Assembly: GCF_963506605.1 (NCBI RefSeq)
Contig: NC_083282.1
Coordinates: 73,966,001 to 74,030,000, forward strand
Direction of reading: 5' to 3'
Origin: Zootoca vivipara
Taxonomy: Eukaryota
Length of the DNA stretch: 64,000 bases
Below, piece after piece: positions 1,222 through 18,425 of the stretch; the first letter of the stretch is position 1; each line of letters opens with the position of its first letter. The translations under genes were made by a program, and so were the position numbers. Below the pieces are notes generated by a model that had not been told where the DNA came from, made no database searches, and saw only the letters and a list, made by a program, of their open reading frames with translations.

Positions 1222-2610
1222 ATCTATGGGATGGCTTCCAGAGTGATTCTCACATGTGTGTGTGCACCTACATCTTGCTGCGATGGGTCATTTATGCAGC
1301 TGGGATATTGTGAAGTGTAACTTTTCAGCAGTCCAGATTCAGCTCATAGGATACTTGGCAAACATGGCAATAAGATATTTTTACCCGGGGTGGGGGGATA
1401 TTTCCTGGGAGCATTTGGCAGTCTAATGAAAGAAGAGAGTGAATTGTTGCATTCTGTCCTAGGTGGTGAGAGATAGTATTGTCCTACATCGTAGGATCAT
1501 TGTGGAGGGAAACGGGATAAAGACAATAGAGCACTTAGCACATTAAAAGCACATTGTAAACAATTAATGATATTATTGCCATATGACTGGGCAGATGGAA
1601 GTGGCCTCTTCATAGCAGATGTTGGGCCCTCCCCCTGCTTCCTTCCAGCAAACACATTTTCCACTCATTGCTCTGCTATCTAAATATTGCTTCTGCCCTG
1701 TAGGCTGTCTGGGCATCTCTGGCCTTCTGGAGTCCTCCCACTCCTGCCTTGAAAGTTGCCCAGAACAATGGGAGACCTTTAGAAAAGGTTGTGATTAGCT
1801 AATTTTATTCTTTTTCTTTTAAAGGTATGTTTATTTAAACTGCTGCCCTTTCCTGTAGCAGGCAATGGGGTGGCTTGGTGCAAGATGCTGAGGACGAACA
1901 GTATGTGGGAGATGGTTAATCATCATAAACTACTTGTGAACCTTTCTGTGGAACCTGTTAAGAGACATAGGCCTGGACCTTTTGGGTTGTAATACAGCAG
2001 TTTTCATATGGAGAGGCATACTAGTGTGTAAAAAGAAAAGGCCAACCAAAAACTACAAGTCATTTTGACACCTGTAGTTGTTCCCTCAATTAAAGAGATG
2101 ACTGGAATCTTCTAGAGGGAGAAGAATTGAGTTCCTGCACTCTTCAAATCATAACTTGAAATGTTTGTGGCTTGGCAAATGGAATGTTGCAAGTTCACTA
2201 TTTCACATTCAGTGGAAAAACCTGTCTTGAGGACTAGAAGCTGTTCGTTGGCCATGCTGCTTTTACAGAAACAGTAGAAAGGGTGGCCGTTAGAAATGTT
2301 CTACATTCATTCCCATATCCATTTGTGCACCAAGAAACCTCTGTGTATTCAGAGAAACTTGAGGTGGTTAGTTCATGCAGGGCACTGGCTAGTTTTCCAC
2401 CTCAATATATGTTCTTATTGGGGAACCACTGATAAGCTTTTTAGGGACGCCAGAGTTCCTAGGAATACATGTTGAAAACCACAATATTATGGCTATTAGC
2501 ACTTGTGAATGCATCTTTCCCATTTTGAAAAGCATCTCAAAACTGCATTTCTTTTAATCTAAGCCCTGTCTCTTTCTCTCTTGTATCCTGCTCCTCATGC
2601 TTTCATTTAG

Positions 2611-2628
2611 GAGAAAGGTGGATGTCAG
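2611..2628 (+). CDS. SRC: SRC neuronal N1 micro-exon (18 nt; SH3 insert RKVDVR)
   Basis: ttcatttag|GAGAAAGGTGGATGTCAG|gtgtgt. 18 nt and frame-preserving; encodes RKVDVR as in N1-Src. Preceded by a CU-rich tract (2568-2582) and TGC motifs just before the AG. Confidence 0.93.
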
Positions 2629-3499
2629 GTGTGTATCTTCTATTTGATTGGCATAAACAATAAAAGCTAACCTGATCTTTGATGTCTAAACTATGGGGGA
2701 AAGGATTGGGAGGGAGAGCAATGTTATGCATTAAGTTTAAAGTCCTTATGGTTCTTCTCATTTGCAGACTCAGGAGTTTTAACATTGGTTTTGAGCATTT
2801 TTACTTTTGTAACCAAGCAGATGATATATTCTAGAAGTGTTGTTTCAACTGAATTTTAGATTTTGGAGTGTTATGTATGCATTTTTCTTGTTTCCAACTG
2901 GAATGTGGGGAGCGGAGTTGTCTGAGTTAGATAAATTCTTAGTCATGGTGATCAACCTTCTAACGGGAGAAAAATCAGAGTTCTGGGCAACATAAGCAGG
3001 CATCATTAAGTACCTGTGTATGAGTTGTCCAGTAGCTCAGGGGATTCTAGACTGCGGTCTGTGCACCAACAACGGTCCATGAGCTTCATTCAGAGGGTCT
3101 GTTACATGTCCACATTACTTTTTGATTTTGATTTTTGATTGCATTTTGACTGCCTCTTTTATTATATTGCATTTTACATTGGAATGCAAATTCAATAAGT
3201 ACGATAAAATACAATATAAGAAATAAAAGAAGCAGTAAAAAGGCAATTAAAAATCATACAGCATGTTGCACAGCAGGTGACAATTGCTACAACAGGCAAG
3301 CAAAATAGTTAAGTGGTTCAACAAGACCATCAGCAATTTTCAATTCATAGGGGAAATTGGGACCCCCTAGTACCATATGCCTTACTTGAGTAAAGTTTGC
3401 ATATGGTTTAATAAGAACTGAGTATATAAAGCTGGCTCTGCCTCTTCTGAAGAACATTAAAATCATGTAGGGATATCCCAGACTTCTTATTGTTCTGCT

Positions 3500-3899
3500 C
3501 AGGGCTGTCTTAAGCATATGTAGCACCGGGGTGCAAAAATCCGGCCGGCACCCCTCCCCCTGGTTGCCCAGAGTTGGGCTAGCCATTGGGCTAGCCATTG
3601 AGGCATGCAGGCAGGGCAAAGCAGGGCACAGAGGAGTGTGAGGCAGCAACGCTAGGCTGGGCAGCTCGTCAGGTGGGTAGTGCGCTCTGGGCGGGCCTCC
3701 CCATGTCCCTACGCCAATCCTAGGTGCGCCTCACTGGCTTGCCTGCCCCTGAACACATGACGGAGAGCTGCCCACAGCAGAAGAGCCTGCCGCGGCACTC
3801 CAGTGGGCGGGCTCTTTCCCGGACTCCAACTCTCAGAACCCTGAGAGCCCAGTGCCCGGGTGCCCTGCACTCCTAATGCCTATGGTTAAGACGGCCCTG
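3500..3899. mobile_element. Non-autonomous hAT-like DNA transposon, GC-rich interior
   Basis: TIRs CAGGGCTGTCTTAAGCATA / TATGGTTAAGACGGCCCTG; exact 8-bp TSD GTTCTGCT (3492-3499, 3900-3907). Confidence 0.85.
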
Positions 3900-4671
3900 G
3901 TTCTGCTTGTAACCATATGGGTAGACATTCTTCCTGTGAGGGACAAATGCAACTTGGGAAGGAGACAAGGAGATTTCACTCCAGTTGAATACACAATAAA
4001 CCATGGAAGAATGGGAACAGGAGTGGGATGCCTGTGGCCCCCTAGATGTTGTTCAAATAACTCTGATTCAGATGACTTTGAAAAGAATAATGGTGCACTA
4101 TGGACTATTGATTGAATTGTGGTATTACAGGGAAGGAACTGCTTGTGTTGCCAACTGAGCTGGCTGTATCCAGCTAGCAAAGATTATGAGTGTGAAAGCA
4201 CCATTCATTTAAGCTTATTATTCCAGCTCTTATATGATTTCATTTATCTCATCCCCCATTCATTGCTTACTTGCCTAGGGCTATAATCCTACGCATACCT
4301 AGTCTGTTTAAATCAACTGTAATGGGATATAGGCAGATAAGTCTGCAAGTTTCTCTCTCTCTCATGGGGAAATGAAGGTGACAAAGGGTGTATTCCTCTT
4401 TCTGTTCTGCACACCTGCTGTTGAGATTCTTTTCACTGACCAAACTTCATGTTACTAGCCTCTGAATGCAACAGGCATTCTTGAAGTTCATGATAGGAGT
4501 TGAGAAAATGCTGCAGGGGAAGGATTTTATATTTGGTCTAAACACATTTACCCATACAGGGGTAGCCAGCAAGCATTATATACCTGTTAAGACCTAGAAA
4601 TTAAGACCTAGAAATTAAACATCTGTTTTTCCTGAGAACTTGCTGTTTGGCCTGGCAAGTATATACAGTAT

Positions 4672-4673
<2 letters not shown>

Positions 4674-4761
<88 letters not shown>
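4674..4761. repeat. Compound microsatellite (CT)n(GT)n
   Basis: Seen directly. Confidence 0.95.
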
Positions 4762-4762
<1 letters not shown>

Positions 4763-7031
4763 TATATTTAATCCTAGTCAAGGTCAGGCCAGTAAACATT
4801 CGGAGCTAAAGTTTCTCTTGCAATATTAATATTTTAATAATCTGTGGCTTTTAAAACAATTCTGTGATGGTGCAAAGGAAATGGAGCTCTGCATGTTTTT
4901 TCTTCTTCTTTAGAGCCCTGACTTGAGGACTTTAATTTGGACTAGGTCAGAGTGCTAGAACCTGTTTTCTTTGTTGAGGGCTTAGGCCTTGAACATATGA
5001 AGTAGCAAAAAATAGTTTGAGTGTGCATGCAGAGTGTTAGAAAATGTTCTTCTTGGTACCACCGAGCAACCACCACTAGCCTCCACATTTCAGGGATACA
5101 TCAGACAGTATAGAGTCAGGTGCTTGCACATGGTGATATAATGAATCCCCGTAGCTTATGAATGGAAATATTCCAATAGAGGTTCTCTCTCTCCATGTTA
5201 TGGTGGCTTTTGACCACTCCTACTGTTTCAGCACAGTGGTCAGAAGTGGTTCAACTTGTACATGTGGGGCATCAGTCGTTTCATTCAGATTGGCAAAACC
5301 AGATGGCAGCTTTTAAAGCACCATTTAGATTGTCAGAGTAAGAGAGGCGGATCTGTCCACCAAGACCTGCCAAAAGGAGTTGCACAAAAGCACATTATTG
5401 CTGTTGCCTAGCTCTCCCTATCACAAAAACGAGTCTTCCACTGGATAGTGTCTGGGTGGACTGTGTTAAAAAGAGAGTGCCACTTGGTATAGCCAAATTA
5501 TCATGATGCCTTGGCCAGCTCTGCCAAACTGGCAACTGTTTGCCTACCCCTTGCCGTAGAACTATCCTTGAACAGGTTTGCTTCCTTGAACTTCCCAGTA
5601 TAAAAAACGTAAGTATTGCTGATATCCAAACTTAAATTTCGCAGGTAAGTATTTCTAACCTAAATATTTTCCTTATTTTTTAAACCGCAGAAACAAAAAT
5701 AGACATTTTTGAATACTGAAAGCTCTGGTCTTTGGCTGTTTGGCACACTTTCCAGGTACAAAGGAAGTGTGCATTCTTTTGCTTCAAAGGAACTAAATGC
5801 AATATTGTGAGCGCTGGCAGCTTCACAGCTGCCTCTGGTATAAATAACGCTGAGAACAGAATGGCCCTCATAGGAAGATGAGGTGGTTTTTTTAAAGGCT
5901 TTGTGCTGAAGCATGTAGAGGAGAAATGAGTCTCAAGCTATGTATTTCACAATATCCAATATCGCTTCACTGTTGGAGTTTAGGATAAGAGTGTGGTTCT
6001 CACAGAGATACTGTAGCAGTAATGAACTGCAATCTTTTGAATAGCTAAGGTGCCTGGCCTTCTGCCTAGCAACATGTTGCGAGGGGAGGAAGTTTCTGAG
6101 AGATACACGCTGCATTTGGCAGGTTGTGCTGACCCAGCCATATAATTCCATAGCTGTGGCTGTAGTTGCACCCCCCCCCCCCAGTCAGAGGTATGCAGAG
6201 GAGAGGAAGCCATTTTTGACTGCCTTTAGTAGAAGTGGATACCTTTACTTGAAAAATAGATGAACATGGATAATTGCTTAGTACCGTACAAGATAGGTTC
6301 AGAAGTTCTGATCGTTCGACTTGTCGCTTATGTCTTTCAAAAGAAAGCAGCATCATGCAGTGCCTTGACCTAGCAGCTTGGCTCTGGAAAAAAAGTTTTA
6401 TCTTCATAAACATTCTGTCTTAAAATTCATTGAGGTTTCCCAAGCAATGGATTTGCAGTGTGCGGATTAAACTGACCCAGACAGAAGTTGACTCTGGGTT
6501 TCCCCATTCATTCCAATGGAGAGGTCTATCTGTAGGCCTCTCATAGGAGCTGGCATGTCCTTCCACTGAAGTGGATAGGGAAGCACATATACCCTGGGGA
6601 ACTTCTGAACCTCTCTAAGCAGTCACCAGATTGGGAGTGGTTATTAGTATTCTGACACCCAAAGATGAGAAGATAGCATGATCTCCCTACTTACAATGGA
6701 TTTTCCTGGCATGTGCTTACCCAAGCTGTACTTTCCTGTGACATTAATCAGGATGGGGAACTTGGGGCTTTCCTTCTACTTGGATTTTTTTTCCTTTTGC
6801 AGCTTCCTCTTCCTCATTTGTACCTCTTTATCTTCCTTCTGTTTTACACAGTTTAAGAAACAGAGCCTGGGTGAGGAGTACCTGTTATTTTAGAAGTGGT
6901 AGCTCGCGCATCACTGCATAGCAGCGTTTAGAATGCTTTCTGGCTATGCACTATGTGAAAATAGTGCCATATTAACAGCTAGCCAGGCATACATCTGGTG
7001 ATTTTAGCCAGCTCTTCCTGCAGATCTAGTA

Positions 7032-7591
7032 CAGTGGTACCTCGGTTTAAGTACACAATTGGTTCCGGAAGTCTGTACTTAACCTGAAGCGTACTTAACC
7101 TGAAGCGAACTTTCCCATTGAAAGTGACCTTGGGCTAGTCACACTTCTCTGAAGTCTCTCAGCCCCACCCACCTCACAGAGTGTCTGTTGTGGGGGAGGA
7201 GGGGAAAGGAGATTGTTAGCCGCTTTGAGACTCCTTCGGGTAGTGATAAAGCAGAATATCAAATCCAAACTCCTCCTCCTCCTCTTCTTCTTCTTCTTCT
7301 TCTTCTTCTTCTTCTTCTTCTTCTTCTTCTTCTTCTTCTTCTTCTTCTAATGGAATGTGGATTAATCCGTTCCAGATGGGTCCGCGGAGTACTCAACCTG
7401 AAGTGTACTTAACCCGAAGTATAAGTGTAATTGGTTTTGGAAGTCCGTACTTAACCTGAAGTGTACTTAACCTGAAGCGAACTTTCCTATTGAAAGTAAT
7501 GGAAAGTGGATTAATCCGTTCCAGACGGGTCCGCGGAGTACTTAAACTGAAAGTACTCAAACCGAAGCGTACTTAAATCAAGGTATGACTG
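7032..7591. mobile_element. Tc1/mariner (Tigger/pogo-like) MITE with internal repeats, interrupted by a SINE
   Basis: TA|CAGTGGTACCTCGGTTTAAGTAC ... GTACTTAAATCAAGGTATGACTG|TA; repeated GTACTTAACCTGAAG units; the element resumes (TAATGGAA) after the insert. Confidence 0.8.
7125..7347 (+). mobile_element. 5'-truncated Squam3/MIR-like SINE with (TTC)n tail, nested in the MITE
   Basis: Core GTGACCTTGGGCTAGTCACA...CACCTCACAG, 3' part GCCGCTTTGAGACTCC, (CCT)n(CTT)n tail 7270-7347. Family name from memory. Confidence 0.7.
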
Positions 7592-8261
7592 TATAAGAAA
7601 TTGTCCCTCTGCCAAGGCCAGCCAGATATTCGTTCCACACACCTGATATACAGCTATGCATCTAGGAGTGTTTGTATTCACGGGTAGCCCCAAACATCCC
7701 CAGAACTCACTGTGTTTGGACTTCATTAGCCTGCATGGCTCTATAAACCTAGTTGTGGGGGTTATGGTAAGGCTGCCATATGTCTCAAATTTCCCAGACA
7801 TAGCCAGGATTTGGCTGTTGAAAATGGCATCCAAGCGAAATTTCCGAAAAGCAGCTAAAATGTCTGGGAAAACCCGGATTTTCACTTTTTGAAATACGGC
7901 AACCCTAGATTATGGCCATGCATCCAATGTTTTAACTAGGACACTTCAGGGATAGAATGGGTCTAAATACACATTCTTTACACCACCCTATTTGCTATTA
8001 CGGTTCTGTCGGGGGGGAGGTGGTGGTGAGGGGAGTACCTGCTTAAGAGTTGCACTGCTTGCAGAAGCCACCTTCCCTCCAAGAAGTGCAGGGCAGTCTC
8101 ATAAACCATCAAGTCAACCCCCTCCTTTATGCAGGGGTAGACAGAGCAGCCATAGCCAACTTTGTGCCCTTCGCCCGTGAGTCCTGGCTGGGGCTGATGG
8201 GAGTTGTAGCCAAAAACATCTGGAGTACGCCAGCTTGGCAAAGGCTACCTTAGAGCACCTT

Positions 8262-8480
8262 CAGCAGACAGTTGACAGGCTCTGCTTGAAGACCTCCAGC
8301 GTGGGAGAGCCCACCGACCCCTTGGGTAATTAGTACCCTTGCCAAACTGCTCTTCCTTTCCCTCTACTGTTCAGTCAAATTCTACCCCTCTCTAACTTAA
8401 GCCCCCTGGATCTGCTCCTGCCCTCTGAAGCAACAGAGAACAAGCCTCTGCTCTCTTCTTTGTGATAGCCCTTCATGTAC
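8262..8480 (-). mobile_element. CR1 LINE fragment (degenerate)
   Basis: Resembles the reverse complement of the CR1 ORF2 3' region (AAGACCTCCAG..GGAGAGCCCACC; GAAGCAACAGAGAACAAG). Confidence 0.5.
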
Positions 8481-11400
8481 AGCACATGTTACTAGCCTCC
8501 GGAAACAATAAATAGACAGGGCCTGGCAAACTTCAGTTGGCAGAGCATTCTTTAGGGAAGGTACCATTGCAGGGAAAGCTCTGCCCCTGGGAGTGTTGAG
8601 TAATCCAAGGTGGAATCTCCAGTGATGAGGAGAGAGTTTTCGCACTGAAAGGGTTTGCCTTGTAGCCTTGTGAACCCCCCACTCCTTCCACACTTATTTG
8701 CATCCCACTCTTCCTCCAAGCAGCTGAGGGCAATGTGGCATATCTTCCTATTTTTATCTTACCCCTTTTATCCTCTCAACAACTCTGTATGCTTAGGCCA
8801 CTTCAAACCATTTATTTAAGTGGTGTACAGTAAAATCGATCCCAAGCAAAGATTCCCCAGCTGTGAAGGCAGGGGTTGAGGCAGCCTCTCCAATAGGTAG
8901 GTTAAGCTGAGAGGAAGCAAGAGTGAGACCAGCTTGTTGAGAGTCACCTGATTTTCATAGGGGCTGAACAGAGCTTTTGAACTCAAGTCTTGCCAGGCTC
9001 CAAACCAGGAAGATTTATCCATCACAATTTGTGTCTCTGCTTAGTTATTCACTTGTCTGGAAGGTTGTACTGAAAAGTTTATAATCTTCAGAAGATCTCT
9101 CTCAAGACTGCTTTGGAAGAAATTGCAGGGGTTAAGAACGAAAAGCTCAGTTTTCCCTTGTGGTTGCAGCAAATTAAACAGGGACACCAAAATATCACAG
9201 AAGGAGAGAAGGGAGCATCACTCATTTCTAATATTCAGGCTGCCTCTTGCAGCCTCTTCCTCGAGTGAATAACATTCCCACTGTTCTCTGGCATTCTTCC
9301 CACTTCTGCCCCAATTACAATAATTCTATTGGGTAACAGACGTGTGTGAGAGAGCGGGGGGGGGGGATATCTTGGAGCCCTTTTTAATGGGCTGGCATAC
9401 CGTTTTATTTTGCCTGTCATTCCAAACCAAGTATTCCTTCCCATAGGAATGGATCCAGTTTCAGTGTGCTGGCACTATAAGGCCGAAAACAGTAACTGAA
9501 GCATTTTCGCAATTAATAAATCAGTTTGTTAACAGCAAATAAAATTCCAACAAGTTACATAAACAATATCAACATAAGGTCGTTCCCCCCATTTACATAA
9601 TGGTCTGCATTCTGTGCAATGGCTGGGTAATCTTTCCCTACGGTGGCAAATCTATTGTGGGAAAATATATAATCACTAGGAGTTTACCCCTCCAACCCTT
9701 CAGGTAGCAGAGAGATGGGGAACCTTCAGGCCCAAATGCAATCCCCAGGCTTATCTGTCTGAGCCTCCCCAGGACACAAACCCTCACCAGCCGCACCTGC
9801 TTTGCCCAGGCCATCTTTCACCATACTTACTTGGCATGATCATTGAATGTTTCTGCCTGGCTAGAATGTGTCCTTGGTCTCTGATAATCATTATTTTTAA
9901 AGGAAAAAAAATATTGTCACTTTCCACATTTGGTATAAATCTGCACCAGGGACTAGCTTCTGCTCAGTTCATGTTGGGACTGCAGGTGTAAGGTGTGCTA
10001 ATGGAATATGCCTGAGGTTTAGAAGACCCCTCTGTCTAAAAGCATGCTATCACCCATGCTCCCAACATAGGTGGGAAAGCTTATCATATGCAGGATTTAC
10101 AAACCCAAACAAACATTTGGGCATTGGTGTAACCATGAATCCATCGTTTTATATAACCTCTCCATGGTGAGCATCTTCCTGATACACAGATTGCATACTT
10201 CTACCCATAGTACTGTGAATCTCCCATCAAACAACCTGCAGAACTGAGAGAGAGACATTCAGTTGGTGTGCGCCCACTGTGTAGGCAGCATTTTAAATAG
10301 CTCCCCTTCTTGGTTACTTCTGTGTACACCACTCTGTGGTACATGATTCTGCAGGGACTCATTTAAAACAGCCTCCACCGGCAGCTGTTTTGTGTGCGTT
10401 GGTCCTTGCAGTTCTCTGCAGCATGCACATCTGGCTTTACCAACTCATTTGCACATGTGGGTGTTTGCATGAAAAAGATGCCTTTTAGTGCCAGAGGCAG
10501 AAAAACCAAATGATAGCCCCATATATAAAACACAGTGTTTTATAGCATAATAAACACTAAACTATTTGCTACACTTTAATCAGTCACCTGCTGCCTTATT
10601 GTTTAAGGTTGGCGCCATCATTGTGAACCAATTTTGTTTTCTATGATGGGGCAATTTTATGTTTTTTTGCAGAGGAGAGGAACTATTTCACACATCCTCC
10701 CCCTATGATAATGAAGTGGTGATGTCACCTGTGTATGTTGCAATGAGTATTGTAGTCCCATTTCCTTATGGTAGCTGTGTTGGCCAGGCTGGTACCATGA
10801 TTTCACCAGTCTGATTTTCAATTGCATTAATCCAATGGCGGTATATAGGTGGGGGGAATAGGTTCCTTTATAATTTCCAGTCTGCCTGAGTTTCTGGTTG
10901 ATCGTCCCTGCAGACACGGACACTGGAAGCTAGAAATTTGTTCCTATTCAACTAAGCAAACATGAGCACTGTGTCAAGGATCCTGACCAGTACAATTCCA
11001 CTTGCCCCTGAGTATGGCTGATGCCTGGCAAACTCATGGCAGTTGCATTTCATGTTGCAGATACAACAAACCTGGAGTGAACTGCAGATGGCTATTAAAG
11101 TATGATAAAAAAAATAGCTAGCATAAAAATTGTCTTTGCCACCACTTGGCTCCCCCAAACTCGTTTTTCTGGAGTTGTCCACTAGACCTTGAGAAAGCTG
11201 CTGCCAGTTGCTGGCTGCTGGATAGGTCAGGGGTCCGACTAAGGGTCATATGATGTGTCCAAGTTTCAGATGTTGCTCACTTTGTGGAGCTTCCTTCATG
11301 CTTCTTAAAAAGCCTGTGAGAAATAGCACTTGATTGTCTATCGATGGTGATGCATAATGTGGCTTGTTTTCAAGGTTATATATAATCCTTCCTATACCTT

Positions 11401-12562
11401 CCCAGGATGTGGGGAAGATTTTGCCTTTTGTTTAGAAAGTTAACTCTGTGACAAGGGAGTCAGTAAAATCCAGAAACCTATGGAGGAAGAAACATTAGGT
11501 TGGCACTTGACCGGAGAGTACAGTTTTATCGTTCCCAGGCATTTTGGAGAGTTAGGCTAACTATTTTCCACCCGCTGCCTCCTTGCCAGTGGCAGTCTCT
11601 GTGTGATTCTGCAAGATAAAGACATTCCAAGCCACCTGGACATTCCTTGAGTGCTTTGGGGCTTAGCACAGAAAAGAAAAATGCAGACCTGGGGATTGGG
11701 ATTGGGGGGGGGGAGTCCTGCCTGCATTCTTCACCCTCTGACCTGCTTTGCCCCGGGATATATTGCATTTACAGTGCTATGTCCTGTGTGGGATGCTGAT
11801 AGAGACTGCTTGGAAACACAGATTTCTTACCTGACACTACTGGGATCAGAACATATTTGGTGTATTAAATTCCTGTGTGGGTATTGCACTTTTGCCTTCC
11901 TGAATCCACAACAAACTATTCAGAATTCAACACTTCTGCAGTTTGGCATTACTTAGTTTCTTCTAGGAGAGACAGCAGCTTTACATAATTTGGTAGAGTG
12001 ATGGAGCATGGCTTTGAACATCCTCTCCATCAAGTCTTGCTAGCTACAATTTTTGTAAGAGCCTGAGCTTGCTGCTTCTGAAGTCACTGGGTTGTATCCA
12101 TTCCTAGTCATACTCAGAACAGATATGACCTACTTAGATCCATTGATTTCTATACTTACTTACTGAAAGTAGAATGTACAGTAGTTGGATAGAACCCAGC
12201 ATGGTATGAACATGTGTGCCCAGCGAATTCTAGGCTGCAAGTAGAATTGCAAAGTAAGATACATTTCCTTACAACTTGTCTTACTCGGTTCTGGTCTCTT
12301 CTACGTTCTTCTCCAATAAACAGTTGGTTAATAGACATAATGGCCCCAATCTTATAACCATGGTTAAAAAAAATTGGAACAGGCTGTAGAATTGTGCATT
12401 GATTCTACCCTTTCTTGTCCACACATACCTTAATGTTGTTAATGTTGGTATTTTAAGTAGGAGGGGTGCAATTTGCCTGTGGTGAGGAGAGCGCAGGAGA
12501 TCACAACTGGCTTTTGATCTCCAAACTGTTAAGAGAGTGGCCCATTATGCCTGTGCTAAACC

Positions 12563-12720
12563 CATGGGCATAGCCAGGATTTATGTTGGGTGGGTGGGGG
12601 AAAGCAGAATCAATGTGTGTGGGGGGGGGGGGGCGCAGAACCAAACTATCTGCAACACAATTGGCAGCTGCCTACCCCCCCCCCCCGGCCGCCGCCGCCC
12701 TCGCCTTGGCTATATCCATG
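12563..12720. mobile_element. Short hAT-like non-autonomous element
   Basis: CATGGGCATAGCCA ... TGGCTATATCCATG termini; TSD GCTAAACC/ACTAAACC (7/8). Confidence 0.7.
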
Positions 12721-12877
12721 ACTAAACCTATCGAGATTGACTAAAGCTAAGTTTGTTAAATGTGTGTTTCACATTTCTTTCCCTTTACATTTCTGCTTGA
12801 TGGAGGAGTTCTGTGCAACTCAGAAGATTGCATAATCCTCAAACTACATTGCCTTACCTATTCTGCACAGCTTAGCT

Positions 12878-13444
12878 CAGGGGTCGGCAATTTTTTTTAG
12901 CTGTGGGCCGGTCCACTGTCCCTCAGACCTTGTGGCGGGCCGGAGAAGCAGCACCGGGGGAGGGGAGCTGGAAGAAGAGGCGAGGGGGGCAAGTAGTCCT
13001 CCCCAGCCGCTGCGCTTACTTTCCCAGGGGCTGCCGCCACCACCACCACCGCTGCTGCTGCTGCTTCTCATGGGTAGGCAGAGTGAGCTCGTCCGCTCCG
13101 CTCTCTGGCCCACAGGAGTACCAGGGCAGCAGCAGCAGCGACAGAGGGAAGATGAGCGGCGCGAAAGGGCTGGCTCCGGAGAGGGGCTGCTTAAAATGGC
13201 ACTCAGCCAGCTCAGCCTAGCCCCCCGCCCTCCTCTAGGCAGGGCGGGGAGAAGCCAGGGGGAGGGAGCGAGGAGGCACCGCCACGGTGTGTGTGAGGGA
13301 GGGGGGATGGAATGGCGCAGGGGGGGGAAATGGTGCAGCCCAAATGAACAGAATCCTCATGCCGATCCACGGACAGTCCGCGGGCCAGATCCTGAAGGCA
13401 ATTGGGCCTGATCCGGCCCACGGGCCTTAGTTTGCCGACCCCTG
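12878..13444. mobile_element. Non-autonomous hAT (Charlie-type) element with CpG-rich interior
   Basis: 13-bp TIR CAGGGGTCGGCAA / TTGCCGACCCCTG; exact 8-bp TSD GCTTAGCT (12870-12877, 13445-13452); subterminal sequence shared with elements at 27721 and 49632. Confidence 0.9.
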
Positions 13445-13780
13445 GCTTAGCTTATCCAACCGAGTAGCATTTTTTCTACCGACTTCAGATGCAGCATGCT
13501 TGTGTCCTTTTCTAGGATATAGTTTCTCCTTTATTTCTTATTCTCTCCTACCCCCCCCCCCCCGGGCTGCATGTATGTACTCTAATGTTATGTTCCGAGT
13601 ATTGCTTTATGCTCTTGTGTGTTTTTTTAATTAAAAAAAAAAACCTTTTGCTTTTGAGCTCTGTGTTCCCTTTTTATTATCACAATTTTTCTTTTCTTTT
13701 TTGTTTTGTTTTGTTTGTGTGCCTATTTCCTCCCCATTCCCAACCCTGCTTTCTTGGACTTCCAATGCTCCATACAGCAG

Positions 13781-13813
13781 CCAGATTTGGTTCAGATTCA
13801 AATGGCTCCAAAG
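13781..13813 (+). CDS. SRC: SRC neuronal N2 micro-exon orthologue (33 nt; SQIWFRFKWLQR)
   Basis: catacagcag|CCAGATTTGGTTCAGATTCAAATGGCTCCAAAG|gtattt. 33 nt, frame-preserving. The translation matches the human N2 insert SQTWFTFRWLQR (recalled) at 9/12. Lies between N1 and the next constitutive exon, after a long pyrimidine tract. Confidence 0.85.
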
Positions 13814-14759
13814 GTATTTTCAATGGGTACTTGACATGCCTTTTTAAGTAAGGAAATTCCTTATTTAAAAGGATCTTGTGTTATTTGTCATTTAACCAAA
13901 CTAATAAGGTGCCAGCTGTGGAATCTCAGATAATGACACAGTTCAGTTGCTATGGAGACCACCTTATTTGCTTGAGTTATCCTCATTACCGGCACTCCAG
14001 TCATGGGTTGAAGAGCTTGCTGCAAAGAAATCCTGCATTGTTTGATTGGAATATATCACATAAATCATGCAAAACTGTTTTTGTTGGGTGAATGGGTTTT
14101 TATTTAGTCAACATCCTCTTCTTTTTGTCTAAGCCAGGATGGCCAGTCCATGTTCTGCAAGCTAGGGATGGGCACTTCTGTCTATTTTGGTCTGTGTCCC
14201 TTTTGCATGGTTTCATCTGTAATTCCATTCCGATTCATTTCCACATTAATCTGTTTTTTTATTTAAAAAAAACCCCTCTCAATATTTATTTAAGTATGCA
14301 TTTTAATACATTTAATAATAATAAATGTATTTTGAAAGACTATAGATATTTAAAAGTGTATTTTGATACATTTAAATGTCCAAGAACAGTGTTGCAACTT
14401 TGGAGAAGTGCAAAATGCAATGAATAGCAAAATTCCATCCTGCAGATTGACCCCAAGTTATTTGTGCAGGAATTCGCAAAGGTTGAATTCCTCAAGCAAC
14501 TCTAGTGCAAATCAGATTTGGCTCCCAGCAGCCCTGCCAAATTTGAATGAATGTATGCTTAAGCCACCTTGGCAGAATTTTTATTCAGAAAGGTGGGATA
14601 TAAATGCCTTAACATAAATAATAATAACATTTCATAAACTGTATGTATTTTCTGTACATTTAATGTTGCTTTCTCTTATACCTTCTGGAAAAGCAAAGGG
14701 ATTGCCTACTGATCAGCTTCGAGGGGAGGGACAAGATTGTTCAGGAAGTACCTTCATGT

Positions 14760-14797
<38 letters not shown>

Positions 14798-14878
14798 CTG
14801 TTGGTTACCATCATCTTCTTTGTTGAGCTTCACCATCCACAAAGGGGTTACAGAATTCTGACCCACAAGCAAACATAG

Positions 14879-15154
<276 letters not shown>

Positions 15155-15992
15155 TAATTGAAATATTTTAGATAGTTTTTGATAAACAGTGCAATGCTTC
15201 TGCCAGGCCTTCTAGCTTCTAACCCAAGCCTTCTAGCCATAACGGTCAGGGGCACCCCTCATTTCCCCAGATAATTCCTGACTTTGTGTCACACATGTAT
15301 TGATCCTTTAGTTGCTGTGCGGAAGAGTGGTCTCAGACTGAACACTGTATCTAGAATTCTCGTATCACTTTGGACACAATGCTCTGAGGTTGAATCAGTT
15401 CACTCATACAGCTTTAAGCCAACTTCAGTGGTCAAGAGTGGAGTAATTGAGTGATGTGCATGGCTAATTGGGCCTATAGCAACTTGCTGGCTTTTAAGAT
15501 ATGATTAGTCTTTCCTTCCTATTAGATGTTCAGCGCCATTTTTGAAAAACACTGGTTTCTTCTGGGGGGGGGGACACACTAGTGAATACCACAGTATCTG
15601 AAAAAATAATGTCAATGATTGTATAAATCACATGCATCTCTCAGAGAGAGACCTAATGACTCGTGAACTGTTTACTATGTGTTTCTCACTCCCTACACCT
15701 GGCTTGGGGAACTTCGGGCCTTCAAGATGTTGTTTGACTACAACTCCCATCATCCTTCACCATTGACCATGATGGCTGAGGATAATGGGAGCTAGAGTCC
15801 AACCACCTCTAGAGAGTCACCTAGCCCTGCCCTCAGTGGACCTTTCATACCATCCAGTTCTGTTTATGAGGTACAGTTCTTAATGTCCTGCATGTACCTA
15901 CTGAAGCTATCCAGTTTATTTAATACTGAAGTTTGCTTTCCAACTAAGTCACTTTTGGATAGTGCACTACTGGATATTTCCACCTTACTAGT

Positions 15993-16330
15993 AGGTAAAA
16001 GGTAAAGGTAAAGGGACCCCTGACCATTAGGTCCAGTTGCAGACAACTCTGGGGTTGCAGTGCTCATCTCGCTTTATTAGCTGAGGGAGCCGACGTACAG
16101 CTTCCGGGTCATGTGTTCGCTTCTGGCGAACCAGAGCAGCACATGGAAACACCGTTTACCTTCCCACTGTAGCGGTACCTATTTATCTACTTGCACTTTG
16201 ACGTGCTTTCAAACTGCTAGGTTGGCAGGAGCAGGGACCGAGGAACAGGAGCTCACCCTGTCGCAGGGATTTGAACTGCCGACCTTCTGATTGGCAAGCC
16301 CTAGGCTCTGTGGTTTAACCCACAGCACCA
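15993..16330 (-). mobile_element. Sauria SINE (near full length)
   Basis: (AAAGGT)n on + = (ACCTTT)n tail; body GAGGGAGCCG..CAGCTTCCGGGTCATGTG..CCTATTTATCTACTTGCAC; tRNA-like head at the right end. Confidence 0.85.
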
Positions 16331-17913
16331 TTTTTTTTGAACTTCTGGGCAGTTTAGCATCTGACAGAAATATTTATGACTATAAAAATGAGCTTGCTCT
16401 ATGGTTTGTTACCTATAAAGACTCATTCATACATGGAGGTTACCATTTGATCATTAGAGTGGAATAAGTGTTTATGTATGAGTGCTAGCATGACATTGGT
16501 GTGCTTCTTAGAACGGGTTCAGAATCTTCAACATTTTTGCACACCGTCCAGGAAAATTTCACAGGATTTTGAAACACCTCCCAACTTGGTGGCCTGTTTC
16601 TCCAATCCTCGGATGACCTTTTGGCGAAGTGCCTGCTTGGAACGGGTTTTGTTTTTCACATTGCAGCTTTTGTGGCAAGGAGAATCTAGAAAACTGTGGT
16701 GACGAGCCCCCAACTTTCCAGTGATCTAACTTAATATCTGTAGATGGAATAAAAGTCTGTAAATTAGAACTCCTTCATACAAAATGCTCCCCCTCACACT
16801 GATATCACCCCTGTGTAAGAAACAATGTGCACCAAAGGAGCGGCGGATGATCAGGCCCTTATTAGAGAAACACTGTTGAATGAGTATTCAACACTTCTGG
16901 GGCCTAGTCTGGCCCATAGATGCCTCTCACAGGACCATGGATCAGGACAATGTTTTCCTGGCATGAAAACACATGAGCTTCCTTCAGCCTTGGTGTTCAC
17001 ATATTTATCAGGCTTTAAGGAGTTAAGAATCTAGCAGCCCTTGGCAAAATTTAGTGCATTTCAGAATGTCGTCTTTTATCCTAGGATAAGTGATTTATGT
17101 AAGAACTCAAAAAGAGCTCTGCTGGATCAGAACAAATGTCCATCTATTTTAGTATTGTTTGTTGGAAGAAGCTAGTCAGATGCCTCTGGGAAACCCACAA
17201 GCAGTGTGTGGAGTGTTCCTATTCAGCGCCTTCCTCCAGAAAACTGCAATCTTATTCTCCCACAACCTGCGTTTTCCAGTGTCCCCCCCCCCCCAAAAAA
17301 AGTCAGTCAGCATTTTATATTGACTGTACTTAATCCTTATTTGCACATTTTTGGGTTTCCCCATTTAGTTCCCCCCCCCCGCCCCCAGTGATATGTTACT
17401 TCTACAAACCTTCCCCCAAGCCTACCAACACCTCTTTTGTTTGTGGGCAGTGCTATTTTGGTAACATAAGCAATGACATTCATACTTGAACATTGAATAT
17501 TGGAAATAGGAATTGTAGCCTTTATACTCCATGAATTTGTCTAAAATCCTCTTTTAAAGCCAAGCGAGTCAGTGGTTTTCATCACATCTTATGACAGTGA
17601 TTTTTCACATATGAGTTATGCATTGTTGCACTTCTTTTTCCCTTTCTTTTTCCTGTCGCGAACCTGCTAATTAATTTCAAATTTGCAAGGTATTCCTGGG
17701 AAGGTCATAATTATTCTTATATTTTATAGAGCCCTACTTTCAAGCTCTTGACCCAAAGAATGAGAGCTTAGCACGTCAGTTCAAACATTCAGAAGAAAAG
17801 TGTGTAGTCTTGCTTCCTGTTGGTCAGAAGCCCTTGGCCCAGGCACTTGCCATGTAGAAGTTGTGCACTAATAAGAAGATTGATCCTTCAATATTTAAAA
17901 AAGTTAACAGTGA

Positions 17914-18210
<297 letters not shown>

Positions 18211-18425
18211 TGATAGCTGAAGTACATTCTTTGTTTCCAAGTTTAAATTGGGAAGTAAAGCCCAAAAGACTTACTTTAGCAGGTGTAAGAATTTGGTGGC
18301 CTCAGATGATCAATAAAGTGTGTTTCTGGGCAAGTCGCCATTCTGACTCAACCAGAGATGCACTAAAGAGCTGCTTCCAAGTGCAGGTATTTCTGCTGCA
18401 AAGGGAGGGTGAGGAGGGGCCTACA

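Follow-up and report, generated by a model that had tools for sequence, protein, structure and literature searches.

A lizard N2-Src exon with a tandem CAGCAG acceptor, probably lengthened by one codon through an acceptor shift in squamates

Introduction

The n-Src loop of the SH3 domain is the named insertion site of the N2 sequence of Src, and in rat the resulting N2-Src shows autophosphorylation about four-fold above that of N1-Src, no gain from PxxP ligands of either class I or class II, and weaker binding of the SH2-kinase linker (PMC4509517). This paper and PMC5577857 treat N2-Src as mammal-only and link it to higher brain function, the latter with the wording 'restricted to mammals'. 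A 2025 paper describes N2 as amniote-wide, and in the available part of PMC12871342 Src appears solely in a reference. The amniote date of N2 is in print, and a search of the literature, with subscription papers and theses mostly outside its reach, found neither a sequence-level history of the exon nor reptile N2 sequences or an acceptor shift. With regard to splicing, PMC3250501 presents a common route of one-codon exon growth in which an upstream NAG arises first and the downstream NAG then disappears, and SRRM3/4-dependent neural microexons carry UGC near the acceptor (bioRxiv 10.1101/2024.09.17.613571). Here we describe the N2 exon found in a window of 64,000 nucleotides from the lizard Zootoca vivipara and compare it with these systems.

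Results and discussion

The N2 exon in the lizard SRC locus

The window carries the SRC gene on the + strand with the exons after exon 4 reaching to about 29054, and the first coding exon and exon 3 sit shortly 5' of the window, exon 3 ending at position 9964 of locus L002. The 18-nt N1 microexon is found at 2611..2628 (+) and encodes the same six-residue insert as in squamate, bird and mammal records, and exon 4, which encodes the second half of the SH3 domain, is placed at 15055..15153 (+) by the sequence and by protein matches. Between the two lies an exon with a tandem CAGCAG acceptor (13775..13780, +, AGs at 13776 and 13779) and a donor at 13814..13821 (+), where AAG is followed by gtattttc. 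It may be read as a 36-nt form from the upstream acceptor (13778..13813, +), which is the form implied by annotation, or as a candidate and probably ancestral 33-nt form from the downstream acceptor (13781..13813, +, AG at 13779-80). The first-pass annotation, which had taken the exon for an N2-Src orthologue of 33 nt, was accurate in all its coordinates (CAG 13775-77, CAG 13778-80, 33 nt at 13781-13813 followed by GT, TGCATG at 13568 and 14204), and likewise in stating that the frame is preserved, as it is with 33 or 36 nt, and that N1 and N2 lie 11.2 kb apart, the measured intron being 11,149 nt. The exon is found 1,241 nt from exon 4, its stretch has a single match genome-wide, and its position in the SRC intron between exon 3/N1 and exon 4 is the one required of N2-Src; in human SRC the insert site is between NNT and EGDWW. 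The 11-kb gap might loosen the coupling of the two exons. The mammalian N1 downstream control sequence holds a TGCATG; in the window this hexamer is absent from 2629-4889, about 2.2 kb past N1, and the nearest copy is at 4890.

When the window was read in six frames, the top match of the mammalian N2 peptide (P0041) was at 13782 with a score of 48 (runner-up 28), and that of the turtle N2 peptide (P0008) was at the same position with a score of 49 (runner-up 30). The score was equalled in 0 of 200 block shuffles for the mammalian query and in 0 of 200 for the turtle query. Judged by its sequence, the exon is an N2-Src orthologue, and the claim made for it is borne out by its AG/GT edges, its frame, its position in SRC and this peptide homology. 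Since N2 is present in squamates, a turtle and mammals, its origin lies at least in the amniote ancestor, which is the date that had been proposed. As a whole, we consider it highly probable that the exon is a lizard N2-Src exon in a 36-nt, upstream-acceptor form that arose via a squamate acceptor shift, with likely inclusion in neural tissue.

Existing annotation

The lizard N2 exon is already known, in that RefSeq carries it and its amniote range is in print. The isoform P0059 (XP_028590855.1, Podarcis muralis X1; XP_033009305.1, Lacerta agilis X2; XP_053250057.1) shows 100% identity to the SRC of the window in the unique-domain exon and exon 4 as well as in five other exon matches, and four weaker exon matches at 75-97% apparently overrun exon edges. 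The N2 peptide of the window is present in P0059 and N1 is absent, exon 3 being followed by N2 and N2 by exon 4; in Podarcis muralis this lacertid form with N2 and without N1 is isoform X1. Predicted models with both N2 and N1 exist for Anolis carolinensis, A. sagrei, Pantherophis, Thamnophis, Elgaria, Tiliqua and the turtle Lepidochelys. Reptile N2 splicing is thus known here through predicted (XP_) gene models, which were collected by a first-coding-exon search giving 58 proteins out of 93 candidates and extended with further records from clusters, 15 being listed per large cluster. Among the 15 squamate records listed, of 43 in the squamate cluster, 7 have N2, 4 have N1 only and 4 have neither. 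That N2 is found beyond lacertids, in anoles, an anguid, snakes and a skink, agrees with the conservation in other squamates that had been expected, and the novelty that had been attached to a reptile N2 is lost, isoforms being already annotated in lacertids, anoles, an anguid, colubrid snakes, a skink and a turtle.

Acceptor choice and exon length

In P0059, ILNN and GDWW are separated by 14 residues, a spacing that implies a 36-nt exon starting from the upstream AG. The variant with one additional Ser, previously thought possible, is accordingly the annotated form in lacertids. The alternative, which was also the earlier proposal, is that the 33-nt form predominates in the lizard, and it would agree with the mammalian and turtle length and with the intact distal CAG, but seems very unlikely given that the annotated lacertid protein, otherwise identical to the gene of the window, requires 36 nt. 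Indeed, 36 nt is implied by 6 of the 7 squamate N2 records (lacertid, anole, Pantherophis, Thamnophis and Elgaria) and 48 nt by the remaining one (Tiliqua), so that the 33-nt edge is seen in none of the 7; turtle and mammal records imply 33 nt. Elgaria and the snakes have Asn as the additional residue, and since the distal AG cannot be part of an Asn codon, their exon can be of 36 nt only. The extension in Tiliqua, A-S-Y-T, aligns with the window intron read in frame, A-P-Y-S, a likeness that is expected if the exon edge slid over intron sequence. Furthermore, a projection from mammals would have taken the available 33-nt edge, and the 36-nt choice therefore probably reflects transcript evidence.

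The ancestral N2 exon would thus have been of 33 nt, and since this length is shared by mammals and the turtle, squamates probably gained an AG three bases upstream of the old one. Because the first AG past the pyrimidine tract is preferred, the new AG would have captured the acceptor, and the AG at 13776 is indeed the first after a long pyrimidine-rich stretch, there being no AG in 13659-13775. Both AGs would have been kept in lacertids and possibly in anoles, the old one would have been lost in snakes and the anguid, and the skink model appears to begin a further 12 nt upstream. Seen in this way, CAGCAG looks like a trace of the squamate acceptor shift. There was no gecko, tuatara or crocodilian N2 among the records examined, and the timing of the shift is therefore loosely bounded.

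It is possible, though on balance somewhat doubtful, that both AGs are used meaningfully in lacertid neurons as a regulated NAGNAG that yields two N2 forms one Ser apart. The two acceptors are each CAG and preserve the frame, and PMC3250501 sees both forms at a level of at least 5% in some tissue for 50-85% of the YAGYAGs of human, mouse and fly. However, the same paper has the proximal AG favoured at NAGNAGs with a preference of about 1 bit, the absence of the 33-nt edge from all 7 squamate N2 records (from the 15 listed of 43 in the cluster) means that the records support the upstream AG only, and since the distal AG is gone in snakes and the anguid, two forms are not conserved. As a minor form, the product of the distal AG is compatible with the explanation that we favor, a 36-nt exon from the upstream acceptor.

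Residue constraint in the N2 peptide

Constraint was counted over 16 N2 records (7 squamate, 1 turtle and 8 mammal), which are related and not independent. The frame is intact in all 16, and 5 of the 11 positions (Q1, W3, L9, Q10 and R11) are invariant. Position 7 is K or R throughout, position 4 is F in 15 records and L in 1, position 6 is F in 13 and Y in 3, and position 8 is W in 10 and G in 6, and the idea of a constrained core W-F-x-F-[RK]-W-L-Q hence fails at its first F, its second F and above all its second W. Residue change is greater among squamates than among mammals, the second Trp being Gly in 6 of the 7 squamate N2 records and retained in the lacertid one only. What appears to be fixed in N2 is thus Q1, W3, L9, Q10 and R11, and what appears to be free is its length and the second Trp. 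Gly at position 8 is found in skink, anoles, anguid and snakes, and Trp in lacertids, a pattern that on the squamate tree requires that lacertids reverted or that the residue changed twice independently. In the turtle record (P0008, Lepidochelys kempii X4) the residue at the N1/N2 junction is Arg vs Ser in mammals and squamates; this record stops at 441 residues, before the kinase C-terminus.

Splicing signals and RNA data

The AG-free stretch preceding the acceptor (13659..13775, +) is about 78% pyrimidine, has TGC at 13720, 13747 and 13766 and is a candidate SRRM3/4 element. TGCATG, which we take to be an RBFOX-type motif, is found upstream of N2 at 13568..13573 (+) and again at 14204-14209, within a downstream intron block (13911..14244, +). 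At the window rate the chance of finding TGCATG is about 10% in the 210 nt upstream and about 19% in the 400 nt downstream. The mean spacing of TGC is about 53 nt, and its density before the acceptor is not above chance. The two motifs were for this reason, being near chance at the window rate, discarded as independent proof of N2 regulation. In a related organism the block 13911-14244 shows 6 differences in 336 nt, and the 7 remaining pieces of the 8 listed show 102 in 2145 nt taken together (binomial p 0.003, the block being chosen post hoc), and this low divergence lends mild support to N2 regulation. The best two branch-point matches, at 13580 and 13625, are each 5' of other AGs (13598 and 13657). 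Microexon cut-offs are set at 27 nt or 51 nt, of which the 36-nt N2 exon exceeds the first and fits the second. By analogy with mammals, splicing of the lizard exon in nerve cells is likely, and its neural inclusion would be mediated by SRRM3/4- and RBFOX-type elements.

In 4 of 22 listed RNA runs compared with 2300-18300, neither spliced reads nor contigs spanning the exon turned up; repeats dominated, none of the 15 joints listed (144 more lying beyond the list) was of the GT..AG type, and reads from conserved sequence may have been filtered out. Among 13 short database protein candidates there was no transcript fragment with an N2 junction. Repeat copies in the SRC introns, at about 7030-7590, 8180-8220, 12890-13500, 15720-16330 and 17250-17550, draw very many RNA reads and contigs from other genome sites. 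Depth in the N2 bin was zero in three raw RNA runs (tissue not given, some 6% of the data being used from each) in which the SRC exons were barely covered, and together with the greater variation of N2 in squamates than in mammals and the eroded look of similar stretches in probable birds (see below) this could be taken to mean that N2 is a vestige or a rare mis-splicing under little selection, and that its annotation is an artefact of prediction. Such a reading is however most improbable, since the frame is kept in 16 of 16 N2 records, since 5 of 11 positions are invariant from mammals to lizards and snakes, since gene models in 7 squamate records have lineage-specific edges, and since the block 13911-14244 diverged less than the other intron pieces.

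Possible decay of N2 in birds

Open reading frames that run from the intron into SRC exon 4 were found in P0168 (12 cluster members, one of them on 179 contigs), P0166, P0184, P0187 and P0193, and related ones that stop short of exon 4 in P0189-P0191. All of these hold an N2-like stretch about 100-110 codons (300-330 nt) before exon 4, which is mostly off frame, P0168 having 11 of the 14 residues of the window's off-frame reading; in P0193 the stretch is in frame and reads SQTPFAFRWLQW. The AG/GT edges look intact, the first Trp is impossible in every such stretch examined, and the second Trp is allowed, without being required, in P0189, P0166 and P0184. Exon 4 in these reading frames is of the type common to birds, alligator, turtle and marsupials, and not of that of squamates or placentals, and P0180 lies on a contig of equal length (10,246) to that of P0146, the first coding exon of which equals that of chicken and pheasant in 81 of 81 residues. 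The N2-like reading frames thus probably come from birds, the evidence being circumstantial. The only metagenome match for P0168 DNA, at locus L004, covers 37 residues at 46% and is not exon 4; it was deemed to be due to chance.

Bird records, many of which are genome-only models, have N2 in 0 of 58 cases and N1 in 9, 14 of the 58 being without a readable junction. Isoform X1, usually the longest model, is without N2 in 7 of 7 bird records vs 1 of 7 squamate records. A Fisher test of N2 in squamate vs bird records was discounted, the records being related and non-randomly sampled. These observations suggest that N2 decayed in birds, and such a decay could explain the older notion that the exon is confined to mammals. 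A history in which a neural N2 of the amniote ancestor was fixed at 11 residues in mammals, was lengthened in squamates via the NAGNAG that is visible in lacertids and mostly changed from Trp to Gly, and in birds kept its AG/GT shell, lost its first Trp and is rarely or never spliced, is offered tentatively, as slightly less likely than not. In-frame skipping of exon 4, with loss of half of the SH3 domain, is annotated in many birds and in pig (P0004, P0019, P0125-P0131, P0133, P0016 and P0055).

Function and significance

By analogy with rat N2-Src, the lizard N2 insert likely raises kinase activity, and weaker binding of the linker would be expected to go with it. An AlphaFold2 model of P0059 from a 20-sequence alignment had a mean pLDDT of 32 and was unusable. 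The presence of N2 in reptiles corrects the mammal-only claim of PMC4509517 and PMC5577857, and the acceptor shift and the possible decay in birds are modest additions to a known exon. A comparative N2 series may be useful to the few laboratories working on N-Src, as natural variants for assays of SH3 binding and activity, and the exon would also be a clean small example of exon growth through an acceptor shift. Moreover, the chick is a natural N2-null amniote, provided that birds really do not use N2.

Comparison with known systems

Compared with the lacertid isoform in RefSeq (P0059, a predicted model), the N2 peptide is identical and no difference was seen. With the SRRM3/4-dependent microexons (bioRxiv 10.1101/2024.09.17.613571), the exon has in common that it is short and frame-preserving and that UGC is found between pyrimidine tract and AG. 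The exon resembles the one-codon boundary shifts at NAGNAGs (PMC3250501) in being one codon longer, in that a NAG remains as its positions +1 to +3, and in that sister lineages no longer have the old AG; here, however, the shift concerns a cassette exon, probably neural, that encodes part of a signalling loop, and it is read from protein records. The closest counterpart is the mammalian N2-Src (NII) exon (PMC4509517; P0041, P0085, P0116 and P0124), which has the same intron, the same phase and the same SH3 insertion site, and with which 7 of the 10 residues wholly encoded by the exon are identical in the lizard. The two differ in length, 36 nt in the lizard and 33 nt in mammals, and while N2-Src is N1 plus N2 in PMC4509517, the lacertid models carry N2 without N1.
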